A stretch of DNA of 64,000 bases, taken from the sequence record PP261279.1, one strand, 5' to 3'. Origin of the DNA: Escherichia phage ECP2303. Every line of letters begins with the position of its first letter. Within the stretch, counting starts at the first letter, position 1. Below, one piece after another: positions 4,776 through 14,101 of this stretch. Under the pieces are notes generated by a model, which was not told where the DNA came from, did not search any database, and was given only the letters and a program-made list of their open reading frames with translations. The translations under genes were made by a program, and so were the position numbers.

Positions 4776-5060
4776 TTATTTATTGATAGCGTGCAGCGGG
4801 AAAGCTACGCCAGGTTGATAAATAACCTTTACAACCTCATCAGGACAAAAGAAGTTGCAGAACTCACCGCAATAGGCCTCATCCTCTTTCAACTCTTCAT
4901 CAACATACTCAAAAAAGTAGTCGATGCTTGGATAATCCTGGCCGTGATTATAGTCAACCATCGTTAATAATAACTCTTGATCATTCCGTAGGATGTGCAT
5001 ACCCGCTTTTAAGTATTTTGCTTCCATTTCTACTACATTGCCAGCGGTAACAATAGCCAT
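4776..5060 (-). CDS. hypothetical protein
   Basis: 94-aa ORF; RBS aggag. Confidence 0.65.
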   Translation of the reverse strand: MAIVTAGNVVEMEAKYLKAGMHILRNDQELLLTMVDYNHGQDYPSIDYFFEYVDEELKEDEAYCGEFCNFFCPDEVVKVIYQPGVAFPLHAINK

Positions 5061-5189
5061 GATTTTAACTCCTATCTATCTGGTCAACGATTGGGGGCCT
5101 CCCCCTCGACAACTCTTATTATCCATATTGTCGGGAATGATGCAAGTACTTCTTTAAAAATTTTTTAAGCGCCCCGTATGCCGTTGTAA

Positions 5190-5228
5190 CGCCAAAATAA
5201 TAAAGGCCATGCAACCGCATGGCCTTTA
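5190..5228 (-). terminator. rho-independent terminator
   Basis: Minus-sense hairpin aaaggccatgcggttgcatggccttt followed by attatttt, downstream of the CDS ending at 5263. Confidence 0.5.
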
Positions 5229-5262
5229 TGTGATTATATTGCTGTAGGCCCTGCCTGGGGCC

Positions 5263-5613
5263 TTATTTTGCATTCTTGCCTGTATTGCCGCCACGGTACC
5301 AGCGTTTGCGGTGAAAATGGTAATAATCACCCTCGGCATTAAACATCAGATGATTTTCAATAACCAGCTTACGAAGGTGGGCCGGATCTTGTTCCATTCT
5401 TGCCAGATTCCGGCGGCTGTTACGTAAGCGTATAAATTCCATATTCAGGCCGTTGATTGCAGCATGGATGTCAAAGTAACCACCTTTGAGACGTTCACGC
5501 ATGGCGTTAAGCTCAACACAATATACAGATTTCTCACAAATCAAGGTATTAGCTAGGGCGCGGACCTGGGCAAGGGGGTTAAGCTCATTAAGGTAATATA
5601 GTTTGACTTTCAT
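5263..5613 (-). CDS. hypothetical protein
   Basis: 116-aa ORF. Confidence 0.65.
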   Translation of the reverse strand: MKVKLYYLNELNPLAQVRALANTLICEKSVYCVELNAMRERLKGGYFDIHAAINGLNMEFIRLRNSRRNLARMEQDPAHLRKLVIENHLMFNAEGDYYHFHRKRWYRGGNTGKNAK

Positions 5614-5630
5614 AAAATCGCCTGCTGAAA

Positions 5631-5930
5631 TTAGTTTGAGAAAACATCGTTCACAATAGCGATCACAATGCCGCCCACCTTGTCACGGTCAGCAATGCAC
5701 AAATCACCATGGATCATGCGGTAGTCTGGATGATCTTTCACAGAATAGTCAATAAGTGTTTTCTTGTCGTCCAGCTTCGTAACTTCCATTCTCATAACGA
5801 TATGAGAATCATCAAAGGCATTATTCCGAAAAGTCATAGCCTGACCGCCAGGGCACCCGGTGATCTCAACTTCCACGCCGTCTACGATCTGACCATCAAA
5901 GAAATAGAGATTATTGGCGGGTATAAACAT
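5631..5930 (-). CDS. hypothetical protein
   Basis: ORF-track frame 5631..5951; start placed at the ATG (MFIPANN...) with 8-nt spacing from aaggag. Confidence 0.6.
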   Translation of the reverse strand: MFIPANNLYFFDGQIVDGVEVEITGCPGGQAMTFRNNAFDDSHIVMRMEVTKLDDKKTLIDYSVKDHPDYRMIHGDLCIADRDKVGGIVIAIVNDVFSN

Positions 5931-5974
5931 GATCATTGCTCCTTTTTGCACTGATTATTTTAACAGGGTTTAAA

Positions 5975-6020
5975 TTTACTTTATTGATGGCCCTGGAGTC
6001 AAGGCCATCTAAAAATAAAT
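5975..6020. repeat. 45-bp conserved intergenic repeat, copy 1
   Basis: tttactttattgatggccctggagtcaaggccatctaaaaataaa, near-identical at 9692 and 10313; contains hairpin gatggcc...ggccatc; directly 3' of a minus-strand stop. Confidence 0.7.
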
Positions 6021-6021
6021 T

Positions 6022-6222
6022 TTACAGATCTACAATCTCTTTAATTCGTTTTACTGCTGCCTCAGCGCCTTGAGGGTAGAAATTATGATAACCAATCACG
6101 CGGGTAATACTGATCGCCGCTTGGTGGTCCTCGTAGTCGCCTTTGAATATTTCTTGACCATCAACCAGCACAGCAATTTTTTCTTCTTTTTTGAAGTTAA
6201 TAACGCGGATATTGTTGCTCAT
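6022..6222 (-). CDS. hypothetical protein
   Basis: 66-aa ORF; RBS aaaaggagaaacaaa-ATG. Confidence 0.65.
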   Translation of the reverse strand: MSNNIRVINFKKEEKIAVLVDGQEIFKGDYEDHQAAISITRVIGYHNFYPQGAEAAVKRIKEIVDL

Positions 6223-6367
6223 TTTGTTTCTCCTTTTGGAACTTTGTCTGTGTGGTGGGGAGTGTCTCCCCGTTGATTGTTATTATCCATATTCTGGACC
6301 GGATTGCAACACTCAGGAAGAAAAATTTTTTGAAAAAAGTTAGGCCCCCAGGGATCGGGGGCCGTTA

Positions 6368-6487
6368 TCAGTTGCTTACAGCGATAAAATACATCCCTAC
6401 GCCTAACAATATTTCAAGGGCGATGATCTCAAGCCATACCATAACACGGCGCGCCTTATCGGTGCGGGGCTTATCCTTGGTTGTCAT
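6368..6487 (-). CDS. small membrane peptide (39 aa)
   Basis: Hand translation MTTKDKPRTDKARRVMVWLEIIALEILLGVGMYFIAVSN; RBS gggggag. Confidence 0.35.
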   Translation of the reverse strand: MTTKDKPRTDKARRVMVWLEIIALEILLGVGMYFIAVSN

Positions 6488-6596
6488 CGTCTCCCCCTTC
6501 CCTCCTGCTAGCAGTTACGTGGTTTGCAATGGCCCCCAGTAGTCCGATCACGACACACATCGCAAGAAAAATTATCTCTCCCGTTGTTCGATCCAT
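6471..6596 (-). CDS. small membrane peptide (41 aa), alternative to 6508..6729
   Basis: MDRTTGEIIFLAMCVVIGLLGAIANHV... with RBS gagagg; overlaps 6508..6729 in another frame, so only one is likely real. Confidence 0.3.
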   Translation of the reverse strand: MDRTTGEIIFLAMCVVIGLLGAIANHVTASRREGGDDDNQG

Positions 6597-6729
6597 TGTT
6601 ATAAAACCTCTCAAGATCAGGCCTAAAAGTAAATCTTTCGTTATTGAATCCGTCACGCCAGGCGGCTGGCTTCAAATCTTCACTAAATGGATTAATTAAC
6701 GTGGCATTATTTAAACGGTTGGCCCACAT
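6508..6729 (-). CDS. hypothetical protein, alternative to 6471..6596
   Basis: MWANRLNNATLINPF...; RBS gagagg; C-terminal part is low complexity. Confidence 0.25.
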   Translation of the reverse strand: MWANRLNNATLINPFSEDLKPAAWRDGFNNERFTFRPDLERFYNNGSNNGRDNFSCDVCRDRTTGGHCKPRNC

Positions 6730-7078
6730 ATTTTCTATTCCTCTCAAATAAGCGATCCGCCTCAGTTAAACAAATCTCATGGGCGTGATCTCTGGTTTTA
6801 GCTTCATCGAAAACCTGTTGTGCAAGGCTGCAACGTAGGGAGACTGGGAGATCACTATAATAGGCGTTGACAAACGTTTGAGCGTCGTACAGGTCTGAAA
6901 ATACTTTACCCTTTCTATTATTCCCCTTGTCAACAATTGCAAGGATAACCAATACAATAGTTGCAACCACCCCCAGGAAAATAGATATAATAAACCATAA
7001 AAAGGCGGATCTCCCCATCTTGCCAGCGATCCAGGCGTTAAACAAGGCAACCAATATAGCCAAAATAATAAATTCCAT
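6707..7078 (-). CDS. membrane protein (two predicted TM helices)
   Basis: ORF-track frame 6707..7111; start moved to MEFIILAILVALF... preceded by aaagagg; hydrophobic N-terminal half. Confidence 0.6.
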   Translation of the reverse strand: MEFIILAILVALFNAWIAGKMGRSAFLWFIISIFLGVVATIVLVILAIVDKGNNRKGKVFSDLYDAQTFVNAYYSDLPVSLRCSLAQQVFDEAKTRDHAHEICLTEADRLFERNRKYVGQPFK

Positions 7079-7142
7079 TCTATGTACCTCTTTTACAGTT
7101 CTGATCAACAATAAGGCGGCAAATATGCCGCCTGTTACCTGA

Positions 7143-7523
7143 TTAAAAATTATCGCCGTAAATCTTTCCGCTTTCTACCCATACCACCACGCGAGGCATA
7201 CTATCCCACACGTCTTGTTTTAGATTGAGCGCGTGCAATTCTTCGGTGGTGCTCATACCGGGCACGGGCTGATTGTATACTGCAAAACGACCACCCGCAT
7301 AATCATAGGCCAGGGTTAAATCACACTGGATCATCTTTTTGATCATGGCATTAAGCATGGCGTTAGCCGCATACTGATCACGTTTTAAAGGCAACTCTTT
7401 GATTAGTTTGCGATAGTTTTCGATATGGTCGCACACTGTTTCACGCGGAAGATCTTTCATATCTTCACGGAATGTAACCAGGTTAAACATAACGGTGTCA
7501 ATAGCCTTGGTAGTGGTTTTCAT
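7143..7523 (-). CDS. hypothetical protein
   Basis: 126-aa ORF; RBS aaagaggataaaatc-ATG. Confidence 0.65.
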   Translation of the reverse strand: MKTTTKAIDTVMFNLVTFREDMKDLPRETVCDHIENYRKLIKELPLKRDQYAANAMLNAMIKKMIQCDLTLAYDYAGGRFAVYNQPVPGMSTTEELHALNLKQDVWDSMPRVVVWVESGKIYGDNF

Positions 7524-7612
7524 GATTTTATCCTCTTTGTTTTGTGTGGGGCAAGACGTTTGCCCCTTGAGTTTTTAATATAGCAGGTTTTTAGATTATT
7601 GCAACACTTTAT

Positions 7613-8236
7613 TTATGAAAAACTCATCTCCCCATATTCATCCACATCAAACCGCCAATCATTGGCCTCGATAAGGCCGATCAAGTATTCTGCGGTGAAC
7701 TGTTCTAGATAGGCCTCCTCCAGGTCTACGTAAACCTTGCGGGATAGCTCCCGTACCGTCTCGGTGATCAGTTCTTCCAGGTCTTCCACTTTGTTTTCTT
7801 GTTTGGCGGTCAGATCTAGCCAAGTGGTATCAATGTACCCGCTTACAGTGTTTTCATGGCTGTAATGGCTGTACTTGTCGCGTTCAACACTGGCTGATAA
7901 CTCGCCATCGTGCATTGTGCCGAACAAGTGACGAATTGATCTGAACTTGGTCAGGGCCTTGACTTTACGCAAAAATTTTTCTAAATCCACGTTTTCAGCA
8001 CTGATTGACGCGCCGTCACCCTGGCACCAAAAGCCGGACCAATGTACTTCGGTATCTTCAAGGCCGTACTCTGGAAAAACTTGTTCTTTATAGTATTCAA
8101 TTACATTTTCTGCGAAAAAATCATCCCCGCTGCGTTCTTCTCTTTCGCGGACCATTTCAATGGCTTTTTCTTTTTGTTCGTCGGTTAGCACGTCGAAAGA
8201 TAAATTGTAACCTGTGGTAATGTTAACGGTGGTCAT
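7613..8236 (-). CDS. hypothetical acidic protein
   Basis: 207-aa ORF with RBS. Confidence 0.7.
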   Translation of the reverse strand: MTTVNITTGYNLSFDVLTDEQKEKAIEMVREREERSGDDFFAENVIEYYKEQVFPEYGLEDTEVHWSGFWCQGDGASISAENVDLEKFLRKVKALTKFRSIRHLFGTMHDGELSASVERDKYSHYSHENTVSGYIDTTWLDLTAKQENKVEDLEELITETVRELSRKVYVDLEEAYLEQFTAEYLIGLIEANDWRFDVDEYGEMSFS

Positions 8237-8310
8237 GATATTTTCTCCTGTTTTCTTTGTTAGTGGCGGGAAGTTTTCCCGCCTGTGTGTTTAATTATAC
8301 TTATTGAGAT

Positions 8311-8571
8311 TTACTTGTCAACACTATTTTTTAAATTATTGTGGCGCAAAATGTTTAAAATCTCCTCAACGTCATCAACACGGCGGCAATTTTTAAACGC
8401 TACCAATTGCCCCATGATTTTAATCACTGGGCGGCCTTGCCAGTGACCCTGGAGAAAGCGCGCCTTGACTTTATCGGTGGAACTATCACGCCACCAAATA
8501 GCCTTGTTGTTGCAGTAGTAAAAATTATTCAGGATAACATCAACTTTATCAAAATTTTTTAATTTACGCAT
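8311..8571 (-). CDS. hypothetical protein
   Basis: 86-aa ORF; first gene downstream of the promoter at 8604-8631. Confidence 0.65.
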   Translation of the reverse strand: MRKLKNFDKVDVILNNFYYCNNKAIWWRDSSTDKVKARFLQGHWQGRPVIKIMGQLVAFKNCRRVDDVEEILNILRHNNLKNSVDK

Positions 8572-8603
8572 GGCGTTTACTCCTTTCTCTCTTTGATGTG
8601 GTT

Positions 8604-8631
8604 AGTATAGCTAACCTGTTGACGATGTCAA
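8604..8631 (-). promoter_or_regulatory. sigma70-like promoter
   Basis: Minus-sense TTGACA-16 nt-TATACT; overlaps palindrome ttgacgatgtcaa. Confidence 0.55.
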
Positions 8632-8749
8632 TGATATTTTTAACGCCATAAAACGGCCCTGGGCGATGTTTTCAGGTTAAGGGGGGCGATTGCATAGGTG
8701 GGGGCCTTTTTGGCGCTTACAGGGCCAACCAGGGGCGCTATTAGTAGGA

Positions 8750-8782
8750 TAGAAATAAAAAGCCCCGCACAATGGCGGGGCG
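8750..8782 (-). terminator. rho-independent terminator
   Basis: Minus-sense hairpin gccccgccattgtgcggggc followed by tttttatttc. Confidence 0.6.
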
Positions 8783-8789
8783 TTGGTTG

Positions 8790-8987
8790 TTATTTGTCTT
8801 TATGGCGATATCGTTCTGCCTGTCGTTCACGTTCCAAAAGTAGGCCGGGCAATTTACGATCATAATGATTGCGCCAGATCTTCCCAAACCTTTTTGGCTT
8901 ATTCAGTTTATTGTTACGCTGGCGGCGTTCTGGCAGCTCTTCGGAATCATGAGGGCGCTTTACAATTTTCTCGAAATTAATTTTCAT
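8790..8987 (-). CDS. hypothetical basic protein
   Basis: ORF-track frame 8790..9011; start placed at MKINFEK... with RBS aagggggg; ends just before the terminator. Confidence 0.45.
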   Translation of the reverse strand: MKINFEKIVKRPHDSEELPERRQRNNKLNKPKRFGKIWRNHYDRKLPGLLLERERQAERYRHKDK

Positions 8988-9330
8988 ATCTTCCCCCCTT
9001 GCTAACTTCAATATTGGCCTGAATAGCCCGGATGCGGCGCTTTATAACTTCCTGATCTGTGTGGTCGTATCCCCAAAAGTCTACAATTTTTGCGCCACCC
9101 GCTTCCAGGCGGTATAGTGTTTCCTGCATTTTGTAAGCCGGGATCGGTCGCGGTGTTACTTGGTCGCCTTCTTTATTTTTATACTTTATAATATAATCTT
9201 CGTTATCGTTGAATGCCCAAAATGGATATTCTGCAAGGGCGGTACTTCCTCTTTCCTTTTTATCCTGGATCTTATTTACAATTAAAGCCGTAGCAATAGC
9301 GCCAATAATAAAACTAGCCCCGCTAATCAT
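8977..9330 (-). CDS. membrane-anchored protein (N-terminal TM segment)
   Basis: MISGASFIIGAIATALIV... hydrophobic N-terminus; RBS aaaggagaaag. Confidence 0.65.
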   Translation of the reverse strand: MISGASFIIGAIATALIVNKIQDKKERGSTALAEYPFWAFNDNEDYIIKYKNKEGDQVTPRPIPAYKMQETLYRLEAGGAKIVDFWGYDHTDQEVIKRRIRAIQANIEVSKGGRYEN

Positions 9331-9406
9331 GTGTACTTTCTCCTTTCATGGTGTTAATAAATTATCTTTATAGATGGCCCTGCAACCAGGACCACCGAAA
9401 AAATAA

Positions 9407-9652
9407 CTATTTCACAATGCCTACAAAACAGATCCCGCCTTCACCTATGTAAGCAATATCGGTAACTTTATAATTTGTCAAGATCTGTTTATTTAGTTCA
9501 TTAATAAAATCGGTCATTGCGTTGGTGTAGTTGTCTTCCATATCTAAGGCATAATCCCAGGCGTAAGCCTTTTTACGTCCGAAGCCTTTTACCATGATAC
9601 GGGCGCTTTTGGTGTTGGTGGGCGCATAATATTTGGTGATTAGTGCTGCCAT
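9407..9652 (-). CDS. hypothetical protein
   Basis: 81-aa ORF; RBS gaggag. Confidence 0.6.
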   Translation of the reverse strand: MAALITKYYAPTNTKSARIMVKGFGRKKAYAWDYALDMEDNYTNAMTDFINELNKQILTNYKVTDIAYIGEGGICFVGIVK

Positions 9653-9691
9653 GGTTTTAACTCCTCATTAGTTCAGTGTTAACAGTGTAAA

Positions 9692-9741
9692 GTTTACTTT
9701 ATTGATGGCCCTGGAGTCAAGGCCATCTAAAAATAAATTTA
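9692..9741. repeat. 45-bp conserved intergenic repeat, copy 2
   Basis: Same sequence as 5975-6020; directly 3' of the gene ending at 9739. Confidence 0.7.
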
Positions 9742-10080
9742 CTCGTTTTCTTCCAGCTCTGAAAGCTCTTCTTTCACTTCTTCGAGCTCTGTCTGCAATT
9801 CTTGGTACTCTTCATCGTCCTCAATATCCAGGCTGTCGATGTAGTCGCTAAATCCGCAGCGGTAAGCGATAGGATCTAGCTCCTTGAGGATACGCGACGG
9901 AAGAAAAGAAATGTTTCCGATCATAATTTCGCCGTAGATCTCGTCTAACCATTCATCATAGTTTTCGTCGTACTTGTCCTCGTCGATTTCAAAGTTATCG
10001 ATCTTGTTCTCAAGGTCTGCGATCTGTTTTTTCAGCGCGGCGATCTGCATAGCTTTTTCTGCGGCGGTCATAGTAGTCAT
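9739..10080 (-). CDS. highly acidic coiled-coil protein (DNA-mimic candidate)
   Basis: 113 aa, rich in D/E with heptad-like segments (ELEEVKEELSELEENE). Confidence 0.65.
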   Translation of the reverse strand: MTTMTAAEKAMQIAALKKQIADLENKIDNFEIDEDKYDENYDEWLDEIYGEIMIGNISFLPSRILKELDPIAYRCGFSDYIDSLDIEDDEEYQELQTELEEVKEELSELEENE

Positions 10081-10159
10081 GGTGTTTTCTCCTTTTGTGT
10101 GTTCTGGGAAGTTTTCCCGTTTACGTGTTTAAGTATACCGATTTGGGTTAGCTTGTCAA

Positions 10160-10279
10160 TTAAAAATTTAAGAAAAATTTTGCAAAACTGTTGGCGCTAC
10201 TCATTAACATTTGCGCCAGGATGTAACCGACAACGCAAACGATAATAGTTACCTTTGTGTATTGGCGTGTAGTGCTCAT
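10160..10279 (-). CDS. small membrane peptide (39 aa)
   Basis: Hand translation MSTTRQYTKVTIIVCVVGYILAQMLMSSANSFAKFFLNF; RBS aaggggg. Confidence 0.35.
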   Translation of the reverse strand: MSTTRQYTKVTIIVCVVGYILAQMLMSSANSFAKFFLNF

Positions 10280-10312
10280 CTTAAAGCCCCCTTTTTCGCT
10301 TAGTTGAGACTA

Positions 10313-10358
10313 GTTTACTTTATTGATGGCCCTGGAGTCAAGGCCATCTAAAAATAAA
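10313..10358. repeat. 45-bp conserved intergenic repeat, copy 3
   Basis: Same sequence as 5975-6020; directly 3' of the gene ending at 10360. Confidence 0.7.
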
Positions 10359-10359
10359 C

Positions 10360-10764
10360 TTAGTAAGTTTTCAGTACTTTACCGTCCAACCTGTCAAGCT
10401 GGATCTCGATAGCTGCAGAAAACCTATTGTACACCACGTCGCCCATAGAATCCAACCAATCTATGACGTTATACACCTGCTCTTTGTTCTTACAGGTCCG
10501 GATCCGTTTCATGATGTAAGCCGGATCAATATTGGTACTCTCGTCGGTGTTCCCCTGTACCTGGTTTGCCGTATTAGTTACATCTTTAATGGCCTTTACC
10601 ACCACCTGGAAGGGCTTTAAGGTACCTTTTGCGTTCATCTCACGCGCTTTTGCGGCGCGGTTGTTATATGTTACACAACGGCGGCAAATGTTGATCAAAT
10701 GCATGTCAATAATTTTTTCATCGTTTGCCAGTTCATTCATGATGCGGCGTACGTTCTTATTCAT
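10360..10764 (-). CDS. hypothetical protein
   Basis: ORF-track frame 10360..10863; start moved to MNKNVRR... with RBS aaaggaaaaaagatc-ATG. Confidence 0.6.
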   Translation of the reverse strand: MNKNVRRIMNELANDEKIIDMHLINICRRCVTYNNRAAKAREMNAKGTLKPFQVVVKAIKDVTNTANQVQGNTDESTNIDPAYIMKRIRTCKNKEQVYNVIDWLDSMGDVVYNRFSAAIEIQLDRLDGKVLKTY

Positions 10765-10847
10765 GATCTTTTTTCCTTTGTGTTGGCGGGAAACATTCCC
10801 GCCTTTTGTGCCCAGTTTACTTGAATTTTGCAGCGTGTCAACAATTT

Positions 10848-11246
10848 TTATTCGTGGGCGCATGTTACAATGTGCTTTTTATAGCCCAGGCGGTCAGCAA
10901 GTGCCGACAAAAACTCTTCTTCGTAGATCCAGCCGTCGGCAGTGATCCCCATAGCATTTAATGCGCTCTCAAGTGCTGCGTTGGCTTTATCATAACCGTG
11001 ACCGCTCGCCTTGCCTCCAGTATAGCCGTACTTATTGTTCTTGTTGTCGTGTATCCAAAAAACGCAGTAGTGAGTGTTCCCGCTGGCGGCGGCATAATAC
11101 CGGATCTCAGCTACTTCGTGCAAATTATTGTCATCGTCCAGGCCCACCAGATTATAAGCCTTGTAAAATCCACGATCACGGCGGCAGTTCTTGACATCAG
11201 AAAAAGAAAAGTCCGCATTATCAAAATTAAAGGTAGTGGTTTTCAT
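10848..11246 (-). CDS. hypothetical protein
   Basis: 132-aa ORF. Confidence 0.65.
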   Translation of the reverse strand: MKTTTFNFDNADFSFSDVKNCRRDRGFYKAYNLVGLDDDNNLHEVAEIRYYAAASGNTHYCVFWIHDNKNNKYGYTGGKASGHGYDKANAALESALNAMGITADGWIYEEEFLSALADRLGYKKHIVTCAHE

Positions 11247-11590: not shown

Positions 11591-11770
11591 CCATTAGTTA
11601 GAATTATTTTTTTTGGGCAGAATTCTCCAGCCGCCGCCCCTACCAGGTTAACCATCGTTTTTTCGTACTCTTCTTTATGTTCCAACGCTCCCGCCATAGC
11701 CTTTTCAACCAGGGCGATAGCCTCAGCGTCATTAATCGCTACATTTCCAGGGGATCAAATTACCTTTCAT
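11588..11770 (-). CDS. possible small gene with frameshift or non-ATG start
   Basis: Strong RBS gaggagg then ATG opens a 12-codon frame (MKGNLIPWKCSD); the +1 frame continues as protein-like ...NDAEAIALVEKAMAGALEHKEEYEKTMVNLVGAAAGEFCPKKIILTNG. Confidence 0.2.
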
Positions 11771-11960
11771 TTTTGTACCTCCTCTTCAATTGTTACCTGC
11801 CCTATAGCATAGGCCTACCAGGTTTGCAAGCTTTCACTCTCTCCTACCTGGTCAGTCAGGTCCTGCCAGGTTGGCCCCGCCAGGTTGCAACGGTTAGCGC
11901 ATCAGGTTAGAATTTTTTTGAAAAGTGTTGACAGCGGCCCCGCCAGGTGGCACAATATAC
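11640..11960. repeat. dispersed CCAGGTT iterons plus two AGGTTAGAATT-T-run elements
   Basis: ccaggtt at ~11643, 11818, 11866, 11880 (caggtt 11903, ccaggtg 11945); aggttagaatt with T-run at ~11596 and ~11905. Confidence 0.45.
11928..11958 (+). promoter_or_regulatory. candidate sigma70-like promoter, plus strand
   Basis: TTGACA-17 nt-CACAAT; followed by the GAGACAA-CACCGGGG motif. Confidence 0.35.
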
Positions 11961-11989
11961 CTATCGGAAGGACGGCAGGCACCGGTGAC

Positions 11990-12009
11990 GGGGGAGACAA
12001 CCACCGGGG
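11990..12009 (+). promoter_or_regulatory. conserved motif GGGGGAGACAACCACCGGGG
   Basis: Close copies at 12126-12144 (same strand), 2368-2386 (opposite strand) and 351-370 (degenerate). Confidence 0.45.
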
Positions 12010-12071
12010 ATGGGCGCTGCATAAAATGAGAACGGTTATCATTATCATTTAAAAATTTATGCAAAAAATCC

Positions 12072-12102
12072 TTGCTTTCTTTGTCCTGTGTGATACTATA
12101 AT
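12072..12102 (+). promoter_or_regulatory. candidate extended -10 sigma70 promoter, plus strand
   Basis: TTGCTT-16 nt-TACTAT(AAT) with TG one nucleotide upstream of the -10. Confidence 0.4.
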
Positions 12103-12125
12103 AACAAGCCGGGGCAACAGGGGCC

Positions 12126-12144
12126 GGGAGACAATCACCGGGGG
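12126..12144 (+). promoter_or_regulatory. conserved motif GGGAGACAATCACCGGGGG
   Basis: Second tandem copy, ~35 nt downstream of the 12072 promoter, followed by gagaatgattatcatt as in copy 1. Confidence 0.45.
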
Positions 12145-12217
12145 TGCCCGTTATTCTGCAAACGAGAATGATTATCATTCAAAATTCTAAATGAGAACTT
12201 TTCGCATTTCATAAATT

Positions 12218-12231
12218 TAGTTAGCATGCTA
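12218..12231. promoter_or_regulatory. perfect 12-bp palindrome TTAGCATGCTAA (operator-like)
   Basis: Read directly in non-coding DNA. Confidence 0.3.
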
Positions 12232-12304
12232 ATTACCTACCGTGACAATTCTATATAAAATAATACCTCCTTAAATATTTCCATATACAAATTTTAAAAA
12301 TCCA

Positions 12305-12480
12305 TTTCCGAAAACGAAAAATCGATTTCGTCCCCAAAAATTTCAGGTCGAGCTCCGGAACGATTTCCAGAAAATCTGATTCAGAAAACGAAAAACAGAT
12401 CGAGTACTAAGAAATTTATCGAGAAAAATTTTCAGAAAATTCAATCTTTGAAACGAAAAACAGATCGAGTACTGAGAGAG
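12305..12480. repeat. three degenerate ~66-74-bp tandem repeats
   Basis: Units begin gaaaacgaaaaa at ~12310, 12384, 12450; units 2 and 3 share cagatcgagtact(a/g)ag. Confidence 0.55.
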
Positions 12481-12631
12481 ATGTATCAAAACCTACTGAG
12501 AATAATGGGCTTATTGTTATAAAAGGTCAAAGGTAAGCTGGGAAAGTTCTGGTAGAAGGGTGAGGGTATGTGCGGAAAATCTGGAATAGTAACTTAAAGT
12601 ACGGTGCGAACGATAGAATGAGCAGCACATC

Positions 12632-13909: not shown

Positions 13910-14101
13910 TCACTTGTTGTTAAGAAGTTCTAAAACTTTCTGTTTTACTTTATCAAGGTCTGTTGATTCAAAAACTGTGCGATATCCCCAACTTTGCCCA
14001 TAGGAATGACTGCAATCCCCGTAACACCATTGCTCAACTTGATAGTATTCAAGGAATGGGTGCTGTCTAACTATGATGCCGTCTCGATTAAAAATTACCA
14101 T
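13910..14101 (-). CDS. hypothetical protein
   Basis: 63-aa ORF. Confidence 0.55.
   Translation of the reverse strand: MVIFNRDGIIVRQHPFLEYYQVEQWCYGDCSHSYGQSWGYRTVFESTDLDKVKQKVLELLNNK

Follow-up and report, generated by a model that had tools for sequence, protein, structure and literature searches.

In a 64,000-nucleotide stretch of the genome of Escherichia phage ECP2303 (PP261279.1), hereafter called the window, we found a short repeat between genes of the early region that is present in three near-identical copies (HP1, HP2, and HP3) and one diverged copy (HPdiv). The repeat is best explained as an early-region intergenic regulatory cassette, for whose hairpin, formed in the sense RNA, the most likely mechanism is that of a T7-type processing signal for host RNase III, and we give this explanation an even chance of being right. 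A function of the hairpin in the sense RNA is very likely, and the copies almost certainly have a role in recombination.

The repeat is a four-copy family conserved among Vequintavirus genomes

A 24-nt core (GATGGCCCTGGAGTCAAGGCCATC) occurs exactly, on the plus strand, at positions 5986-6009, 9704-9727, and 10325-10348, with no occurrence expected in shuffled sequences, which bears out the near-identical three-copy repeat reported in a preliminary description of this DNA. A repeat finder delimited 51-nt copies at 5972-6022 (HP1), 9690-9740 (HP2), and 10311-10361 (HP3), which are 94 to 100% identical, and a fourth copy at 9359-9409 (HPdiv) that is 73% identical. With a covariance model built from the copies, HPdiv scored 68 bits, versus about 80 bits for the main copies; on the basis of this score and of its recombination with a main-type copy in phage 241Ecol014PP, described below, HPdiv is a true member of the family. 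The preliminary description had suspected diverged relatives at about 9363 and about 19250. The former is HPdiv, and the latter is a consensus sigma-70 promoter (TTGACA-N17-TATAAT) that does not belong to the family, nor does a partial match at 13944, which lies inside a coding region. The four copies of the 45- to 51-nt element are confined to 4.4 kb of early-region DNA; when the covariance model was run against the entire 136.9-kb genome (the window and the remaining 72 kb), it found no copies beyond these four.

Positions 5000-11000 of the window are 100% identical to Escherichia phage ECP2309 (PP464953.1; window coordinate = record coordinate - 459), an rV5-like Vequintavirus, and 90 to 95% identical to more than 100 other Vequintavirus genomes. 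Far from being absent from related phages, a possibility that the preliminary description had raised, the element is carried by about 120 Vequintavirus records, mostly at three places each, and its copy number is fixed in nearly all of these genomes, i.e., three main copies and one diverged copy at the same loci. A covariance-model search of KKE7M, UAB_1, and T7 found nothing except a single KKE7M copy. Likewise, a search of IMG/VR for relatives via the neighboring 81-aa protein returned only two loci, and a tblastn search with the neighboring 113-aa protein toward other Vequintavirinae genera returned only scattered distant homologues, which lack the element.

The hairpin is conserved in the sense RNA

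The local genes are all on the minus strand and encode small hypothetical proteins. The preliminary description had placed each copy just 3′ of a stop codon, which is true for the minus strand, and had made no mention of the gene strand, the AU lower stem, or the promoter-like hexamers. The hairpin that it had noted is present and is longer than noted, since the full 45 nt pairs and not the GC core alone. By folding, the minus-strand RNA of these 45 nt forms an interrupted 21-bp hairpin, which consists of an 11-bp AU lower stem (with U·G), a 2x3 internal loop, a 10-bp upper stem (also with U·G), and a tetraloop. Its fold energy is -23.6 to -26.3 kcal/mol (z -4.3 to -6.0) on the minus strand, compared with -17 to -19.4 kcal/mol on the plus strand of the main copies and -11.4 kcal/mol (z -0.9) on the plus strand of HPdiv.

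We collected 27 distinct versions of the element from 13 phage genomes or contigs to follow the covariation of its stems. Standard pairs occupied 96.5% of the cells, versus 35 to 56% with the partners slid by 1 to 3 columns. Four lower-stem pairs were altered on both sides (UA/CG, AU/UA, GC/AU, and UA/AU), and the upper stem was 100% paired in all 27 versions, with its four variable pairs varying through G·U alone. In 71 cells, the minus-strand pair is G·U, which the plus strand would turn into C·A. In copy 3 of the most divergent genome available, the loop and the internal loop are each longer by one base, and the fold persists (-22.6 kcal/mol). At orthologous loci, the core is near-invariant, whereas the spacer to the next ribosome-binding site (RBS) and also the flanking synonymous sites vary freely. 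Loop bases 1 and 2 (AC) are invariant among the main-type variants, and bases 3 and 4 vary. The fold energies, the pairing, and the conservation of the core all speak for a structure that is under selection in the sense RNA. A scan of Rfam 15 gave sub-threshold chance matches only, with no family at or above the gathering threshold.

Two predicted transcription units contain the copies

Every copy opens at the stop codon of its upstream gene and stops 28 to 41 nt short of the following start codon, and the stop codon sits within the 5′ strand of the lower stem. All features in this section are on the minus strand. HP1 (5969-6025) begins at the TAA (6024-6022) of gene 6022-6222 and precedes an ATG at 5930; its lower stem pairs 6022-6012 with 5982-5972 and its upper stem 6009-6000 with 5995-5986, the loop is ACUC (5999-5996), and the 3′ strand of the internal loop is AAU (5985-5983). 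HP2 (9687-9743) begins at the TAA (9741-9739) of gene 9739-10080, with the next ATG at 9652 and an upper stem that pairs 9727-9718 with 9713-9704. HP3 (10308-10364) begins at the TAA (10362-10360) of gene 10360-10764, with the next ATG at 10279 and an upper stem that pairs 10348-10339 with 10334-10325. HPdiv (9356-9412) begins at the TAG (9409-9407) of gene 9407-9652 and precedes an ATG at 9330. It has the architecture of the main copies, with an upper stem of GGUGGUCCUG/CAGGGCCAUC that includes two G·U pairs, the loop GUUG, and UAU as the 3′ strand of the internal loop, but it has no -35-like hexamer in register.

Strong sigma-70-type promoters were found at 10841, 10159, 8631, and 8321 and a weaker one at 6309, and the strong ones mostly have a short GC hairpin and then an RBS behind them. 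A terminator scan found canonical hairpin and T-run terminators at 8781-8762, 7133-7114, 6363-6343, and 5229-5200. The promoter at 10814-10841 (TTGACA-N16-TAAACT), followed by a 5′ GC hairpin at 10803-10785, is the predicted start of the unit that holds HP3, HP2, and HPdiv; a second promoter with a 5′ hairpin (TTGACA-N16-TATACT, 10132-10159) is internal to this unit, which is closed by a canonical intrinsic terminator at 8762-8781 with a GC stem and then TTTTTATTT. Upstream of gene 6022-6222 and HP1 is a promoter-like TTGCAA-N16-GATAAT at 6282-6309 with a 5′ hairpin at 6275-6253, and the unit with HP1 is closed by a predicted terminator at 5200-5229, a 13-bp hairpin with a T-rich tail. The first unit is thus predicted to run from the promoter at 10841 through a gene, HP3, a 39-aa open reading frame (ORF), the promoter at 10159, a gene, HP2, a gene, HPdiv, and two genes to the terminator at 8781, and the second from the promoter at 6309 through a gene, HP1, and two genes to the terminator at 5229. 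Judged from the positions of these promoters and terminators, every copy therefore falls inside one of two predicted transcription units, within which the only U-tract terminators are those at 8781-8762 and 5229-5200.

The 39-aa ORF, which lies directly downstream of HP3 (10160-10279) and has its own RBS, is unannotated in the ECP2309 record and annotated in EdH4, Gotham, isim, and 241Ecol014PP. The near-consensus early promoters themselves make up a second repeated regulatory class, in which the promoter is followed after about 10 nt by a GC hairpin of the GGCGGGAAnnTTCCCGCC type and then by an RBS; it was seen at 8321-8265, 10159-10100, 10841-10785, 4225-4170, and other positions of the window.

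The hairpin resembles an RNase III processing signal

The E. coli RNase III target has been described as an 11-bp helix from the scissile bond to the loop, with a distal box of U-A and then a stringently required U·G, a middle box of 2 bp, and a proximal box (Pertzev and Nicholson, PMC1540722). In the proximal box, position 1 is GC, position 2 is AU or UA, with GC and CG forbidden, position 3 is AU, and position 4 is AU, UA, or a non-Watson-Crick pair as in the natural R1.1 site (PMC1540722). Counted from the loop, the main copies read G-C (closing), U-A, U·G, C-G, C-G, G-C, G-C, U-A, A-U, G-C, and A·A. The U-A and U·G at base pairs 2 and 3 make a canonical distal box and are invariant in 21 of 21 main-type variants, the middle box is C-G and G-C, and a comparison by hand of the proximal box found A-U at position 2 and A·A at position 4 to be acceptable and the pairs at positions 1 and 3 to be not preferred. 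The hairpin spans two helical turns, and beyond its 10-bp upper stem is an asymmetric internal loop with a 3′ strand of exactly 3 nt (AAU or UAU). We also folded the T7 R0.3, R0.5, R1.1, and R1.3 intergenic regions and found the geometry of the element in them. For instance, R0.5 has an 8-bp AU-rich lower stem with the gene 0.4 stop codon, an internal loop with UAU as its 3′ strand, a 10-bp upper stem with G·U pairs, and a 5-nt loop.

Among the roles offered in the preliminary description, that of an RNA processing or stability element fits best, given the sense-strand specificity, the compensatory changes, and the T7 RNase III geometry, from which we infer the processing itself. RNase III specifically may be the acting enzyme by analogy with T7, a proposal that we hold tentatively, at somewhat short of an even chance. 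To place the predicted cut, we derived a ruler from PMC1540722 and the R1.1 cleavage site, by which the 28-nt upper stem-loop product of R1.1 sets the cut 13 nt 3′ of the tetraloop. Applied to the copies, it gives predicted cuts at 5983/5982 (HP1), 9701/9700 (HP2), 10322/10321 (HP3), and 9370/9369 (HPdiv), i.e., after AAU, or after UAU in HPdiv.

If this explanation is right, the repeat would be a regulatory cassette of the early hypervariable region, situated inside polycistronic early transcripts and active in the form of the minus-strand RNA. Host RNase III would make a single cut 3′ of the internal loop, 13 nt past the tetraloop, between …GGGCCAUCAAU and AAAG…, which would leave the upstream cistron with a protective 3′ hairpin and uncouple the downstream cistron both physically and kinetically. 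Weak sigma-70-like hexamers in the same DNA (TTGACN-N18-TAAAYT) may add re-initiation for the downstream gene. Hairpin and hexamers together would then constitute a composite element, akin to the promoter-early stem-loop (PeSL) cassettes of T4-type phages, and the repeated sequence is in addition a substrate of homologous recombination by which the gene cassettes that it bounds are deleted, inserted, and exchanged.

Several points weigh against an RNase III signal. Proximal-box positions 1 (U-A) and 3 (G-C) depart from the preferred pairs, and the distal box of HPdiv has C-G in place of U·G; T7 R0.5 likewise has U-A/C-G there. The invariant AC of the loop is unexplained by RNase III, because its cleavage is independent of the tetraloop sequence, and fits a -35 hexamer better. 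In Gotham, copy 3 (L004 5140-5175) has a 5-nt deletion (GGGCC) by which the 3′ arm of the upper stem is gone, and unless this is an assembly error at the hairpin, one natural isolate has no functional hairpin in this copy; at least that copy would therefore be dispensable. The covariation comes from few independent events, in about two subfamilies and a handful of variants, and gene conversion between copies may have inflated the apparent conservation. Finally, a literature search for transcriptomes, RNA end-mapping, or RNase III data of rV5-like phages found none.

Two further candidates were rejected. An anti-Shine-Dalgarno role, in which a CUCC in the loop would match a downstream GGAG, does not agree with the variation of the loop (ACAC, ACGC, ACUU, and ACCC). 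The ToxI-like antitoxin mimics of the rV5-like phage PhiTE are tandem 36-nt repeats and not dispersed hairpins (PMC3475682).

Recombination at the copies

The element can act as a recombination substrate because its sequence is repeated, and the products of such exchange are seen in related genomes. Phage magaca and the IMG/VR contig L006 lack exactly positions 9738-10311 of the window, the segment between copies 2 and 3, and each has one hybrid copy with the upstream flank of copy 3 and the downstream flank of copy 2. In 241Ecol014PP, the 81-aa gene between HP2 and HPdiv is gone, and there is a hybrid copy that is of the main type at its 5′ side and of the diverged type at its 3′ side. KKE7M, a Justusliebigvirus from a different subfamily, carries positions 9693-10160 of the window as a 468-bp module with 98% identity. 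The module consists of the promoter at 10159, the 5′ hairpin, the 113-aa gene, and the repeat, and its bounds are the promoter and the outer edge of the repeat. A comparison of KKE7M with its close relative UAB_1 (phi92-like) showed a cassette replacement, with the upstream crossover within shared promoter sequence and the downstream crossover in ATAAAGTAAA, a sequence with which the repeat ends on its 3′ side and which forms the -10 region of the promoter in UAB_1.

The loop variant is often common to copies 2 and 3 of a genome, which hints at gene conversion. On the whole, the exchange looks like ordinary homologous recombination between repeated regulatory sequences, not homing. The preliminary description had named a homing or recombination site as one option; comparative genomics demonstrates the recombination directly, and no endonuclease gene is associated with the copies.

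The 113-aa protein of the mobile module (9742-10080, minus strand) has distant homologues, with 37 to 55% identity, in Vibrio, Klebsiella, Serratia, Proteus, Providencia, and Pseudomonas phages, and in PAK_P3 the place matching its gene is annotated as a "putative antisense RNA." The upstream KKE7M/UAB_1 crossover and a deletion in rV5_ev146 (window 10268-10771) both fall in sequences of the promoter and GC hairpin class.

Alternative explanations

On the minus strand, the main copies carry TTTATTTTTA, 7 nt, and then TTGACT-N18-TAAAYT, with 9 of 12 consensus positions matched: TTGACT at 6002-5997 and TAAATT at 5978-5973 in HP1, TTGACT at 9720-9715 and TAAACT at 9696-9691 in HP2, and TTGACT at 10341-10336 and TAAACT at 10317-10312 in HP3. 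The element might thus be primarily a sigma-70 early promoter of the downstream gene, composed of a T-rich upstream tract, TTGACN, an 18-bp spacer, and TAAAYT, with the palindrome being incidental or serving as an operator at which a dimeric DNA-binding regulator would block the -35 hexamer. The 9/12 match is common to all three main copies, and in Gotham the promoter called by PhagePromoter is precisely this stretch. Among the variants, TTGAC stays constant, the sixth base of the -35 hexamer and the base after it vary, and the -10 hexamer varies at position 5 only. The three downstream genes have no other promoter-like site. At the equivalent position, UAB_1 has a native TTGCAA-N16-TAAACT with ATAAAGTAAACT in common with the repeat; in KKE7M, the -10 of the repeat is 10 nt ahead of a 5′ hairpin, the spacing seen at canonical early promoters; and the hybrid copy of 241Ecol014PP reads TTGACA-N17-GATAAT.

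However, we consider a promoter as the primary function unlikely. Given how AT-rich the region is, sites with 9 of 12 matches and an 18-bp spacer occur there at the level of chance (29 found versus 16 expected), and such a match is far weaker than the real early promoters of the phage, which have 10 to 12 of 12 matches and spacers of 16 to 17 bp. HPdiv has no -35 in register and has kept the full hairpin, and the L007 variant, from the most divergent genome, has a spacing of 20 and has also kept the hairpin. The non-Watson-Crick positions are nearly all sense-strand G·U and the lower stem covaries, neither of which a DNA operator needs. The element is missing from the promoter/terminator table in the supplement of the rV5 genome paper. 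Public annotation is in conflict, with a promoter in Gotham, a terminator in Murica, and nothing in most records. The promoter part is therefore not what defines the family. A weak but real promoter activity, as predicted from the hexamers, is possible, and we lean only slightly against it.

It is improbable, in our view, that the element is a transcription attenuator or terminator of the upstream gene, in which the hairpin alone would cut read-through into the next gene. Copy 1 and HPdiv are annotated as "terminator" in Murica, and a stable GC-rich hairpin does stand right behind the stop codon; moreover, one PeSL stem-loop, inserted ahead of lacZ and behind a promoter, reduced expression to roughly the extent that rrnB T1 did (PMC2839356). 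However, the stem is followed by AAUAAAGUAAAC and not by a U-tract, and the T-run lies upstream of the stem, where it is paired with the 3′ A-rich strand; a classical intrinsic terminator was rejected because no U run lies 3′ of the GC-rich stem. The copies are also missing from the terminator scan, which lists the canonical U-tract terminators that close both units. If the copies terminated transcription, the downstream genes would rely wholly on a weak internal promoter, and the conserved AU lower stem and the internal loop would be unneeded.

A metagenome scan for the stem with any tetraloop found the full element in rV5-like contigs only; the other matches were rejected as chance matches inside ORFs or as an unrelated hairpin family. 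In about 20 GC-rich, phage-like contigs (among them L019, L023, L024, L029, L030, L032, L034-L037, L039, L040, and L042-L045; e.g., L023:2373-2440), we observed another conserved hairpin, whose 10-bp stem is identical to that of the element down to the U·G pair: TTTCCTC-GATGGCCTTG-GCRA-CAGGGCCATC-CGGGAAA. It has a GNRA tetraloop, a C·C mismatch at position 11, and then a 6-bp lower stem, and it sits 15 to 25 nt ahead of the RBS of many unrelated small ORFs. Weak relatives were found in the Pseudomonas phages phiPSA1 and AUS531phi, and a comparison with Rfam gave no match. This hairpin may be a second "promoter/hairpin cassette" family, and the common 10-bp stem may be coincidental, with the coincidence amplified because the family is large, or may reflect recognition by a common host factor. 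A bolder proposal is that the element is a portable "cistron insulator," an RNase III-type processing module that would render each early gene an autonomous unit of expression and provide the homology for the moves of such units from Vequintavirinae to Stephanstirmvirinae. We regard this as quite improbable; if true, the stem found in these Pseudomonas-phage-like contigs as well, with its U-A/U·G step, mismatch at position 11, and lower stem, would be a module by which a single host factor recognizes many distant phages, among which it was spread or reinvented.

The hairpin could also be bound by some RNA-binding protein of the phage or host besides RNase III, with a role in antitermination (nut/put-like), as the site of a translational regulator, or as a substrate for an endoribonuclease of the phage. 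In favor of this are the sense-strand specificity of the structure, the very strong conservation of its sequence down to loop bases 1 and 2 and the internal loop, and the location of multiple copies inside units that have internal promoters and end at terminators. We nevertheless find it very improbable, as no known RNA family in Rfam matches, the element leaves the RBS uncovered, at a distance of 28 to 41 nt from the following start codon, we found no candidate for a protein partner, and the architecture is far larger than that of boxB-type signals. Lastly, a selfish mobile repeat or homing endonuclease target is scarcely credible: its presence is polymorphic in close relatives and it is found in a different phage subfamily, but homologous exchange, either between copies or between promoters, accounts for every polymorphism; target-site duplications and a neighboring endonuclease gene are lacking, as are terminal inverted repeats other than the hairpin itself; and the three main copies and one diverged copy keep their number and loci in nearly all of the genomes.

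Other features of the window and of related records

Two further repeats were seen in gene-free parts of the window. The left end of the record is free of genes over approximately 900 bp and contains, at 277-338, a long inverted repeat (AGATCATAGTTGCCTTG…CAAGGCAACTATAGATCT) that folds into a stem of about 19 bp (-29 kcal/mol, z -6.9). At 12297-12477, within a gene-free stretch of about 930 bp (approximately 11700-12630), there are imperfect direct repeats of 47 to 55 nt that are 65 to 74 nt apart (GAAAACGAAAAACAGATCGAGTACT…); they look iteron- or origin-like or could be a noncoding RNA region. Among the database records, 17 "Campylobacter phage" entries (MG0656xx, e.g., MG065635 and MG065672), with Campylobacter jejuni as the stated host, are, over the region that holds the copies, 93 to 96% identical to rV5-like coliphages and are probably mislabeled or from contaminated preparations.

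Significance and comparison with known systems

If the processing hairpin proves true, the rV5-like phages would be a second, unrelated group of coliphages whose early polycistronic RNA is cut by host RNase III. The breakpoints explain, base by base, the gain, loss, and exchange of small early genes among the approximately 120 sequenced Vequintaviruses, as well as the exchange of one early gene with a phi92-like phage. They are relevant to the engineering of Vequintaviruses, which are used in therapy and biocontrol, and to predicting the insertion points of accessory genes, e.g., anti-defense genes.

Compared with intrinsic terminators, the element shares a GC-rich hairpin directly after a stop codon, in line with the label in the Murica record, but its T-run is on the 5′ side, as opposed to a 3′ U-tract. 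The likeness to the T7 RNase III sites is closer. In both, hairpins of about 50 nt that are similar to one another lie between cistrons of an early polycistronic transcript, which is predicted in the case of the element. Both have a 10-bp upper stem with G·U, a loop of 4 to 5 nt, an asymmetric internal loop with UAU or AAU as its 3′ strand, and an AU-rich lower stem that can hold the upstream stop codon; both have U-A/U·G at the distal box, and in both minor promoters adjoin. However, there is no sequence homology, and the covariance model misses the T7 sites; the pairs at proximal-box positions 1 and 3 of the element are not the preferred ones, and T7 sites are not known as points of cassette shuffling.

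Such shuffling is known from the PeSL cassettes of the T4-type phages RB49/phi1, T4/PST, and KVP40/nt-1 (Arbiol et al. 2010, PMC2839356; Comeau et al. 2014, PMC4122927). These are made up of an AT-rich region, sigma-70 hexamers, and a G·T-containing stem-loop in a variable register, and they mediate modular shuffling (PMC2839356, PMC4122927). Like them, the element is a short conserved repeat that reaches from the stop codon of a small early ORFan to the next Shine-Dalgarno sequence in a hyperplastic region. It likewise has an AT-rich stretch, sigma-70-like hexamers, and a G·T-containing stem-loop, which in one PeSL subclass can overlap the -35; the rV5-like hairpin encloses the -35 and has -22 to -26 kcal/mol and conserved G·U pairs. 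In both systems, the copies are crossover points for the deletion, insertion, and replacement of the ORFs that they flank. Unlike PeSLs, the element belongs to Vequintavirinae and not to T4-like phages, with no sequence similarity between the two. Its promoter part is weak (9/12, 18-bp spacer) and missing in one copy, whereas its hairpin, at 21 bp plus an internal loop, is much longer and is conserved better than any other part of it. The element has four copies, compared with dozens of PeSLs, and promoter and terminator activities have been measured for PeSLs, whereas any such activities of the element are putative. In its anatomy and recombination behavior, the element matches the PeSL cassettes, and in the form of its hairpin it is closest to the T7 RNase III signals. 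It is an element undescribed for the well-sequenced rV5-like group, yet one that resembles known phage strategies.

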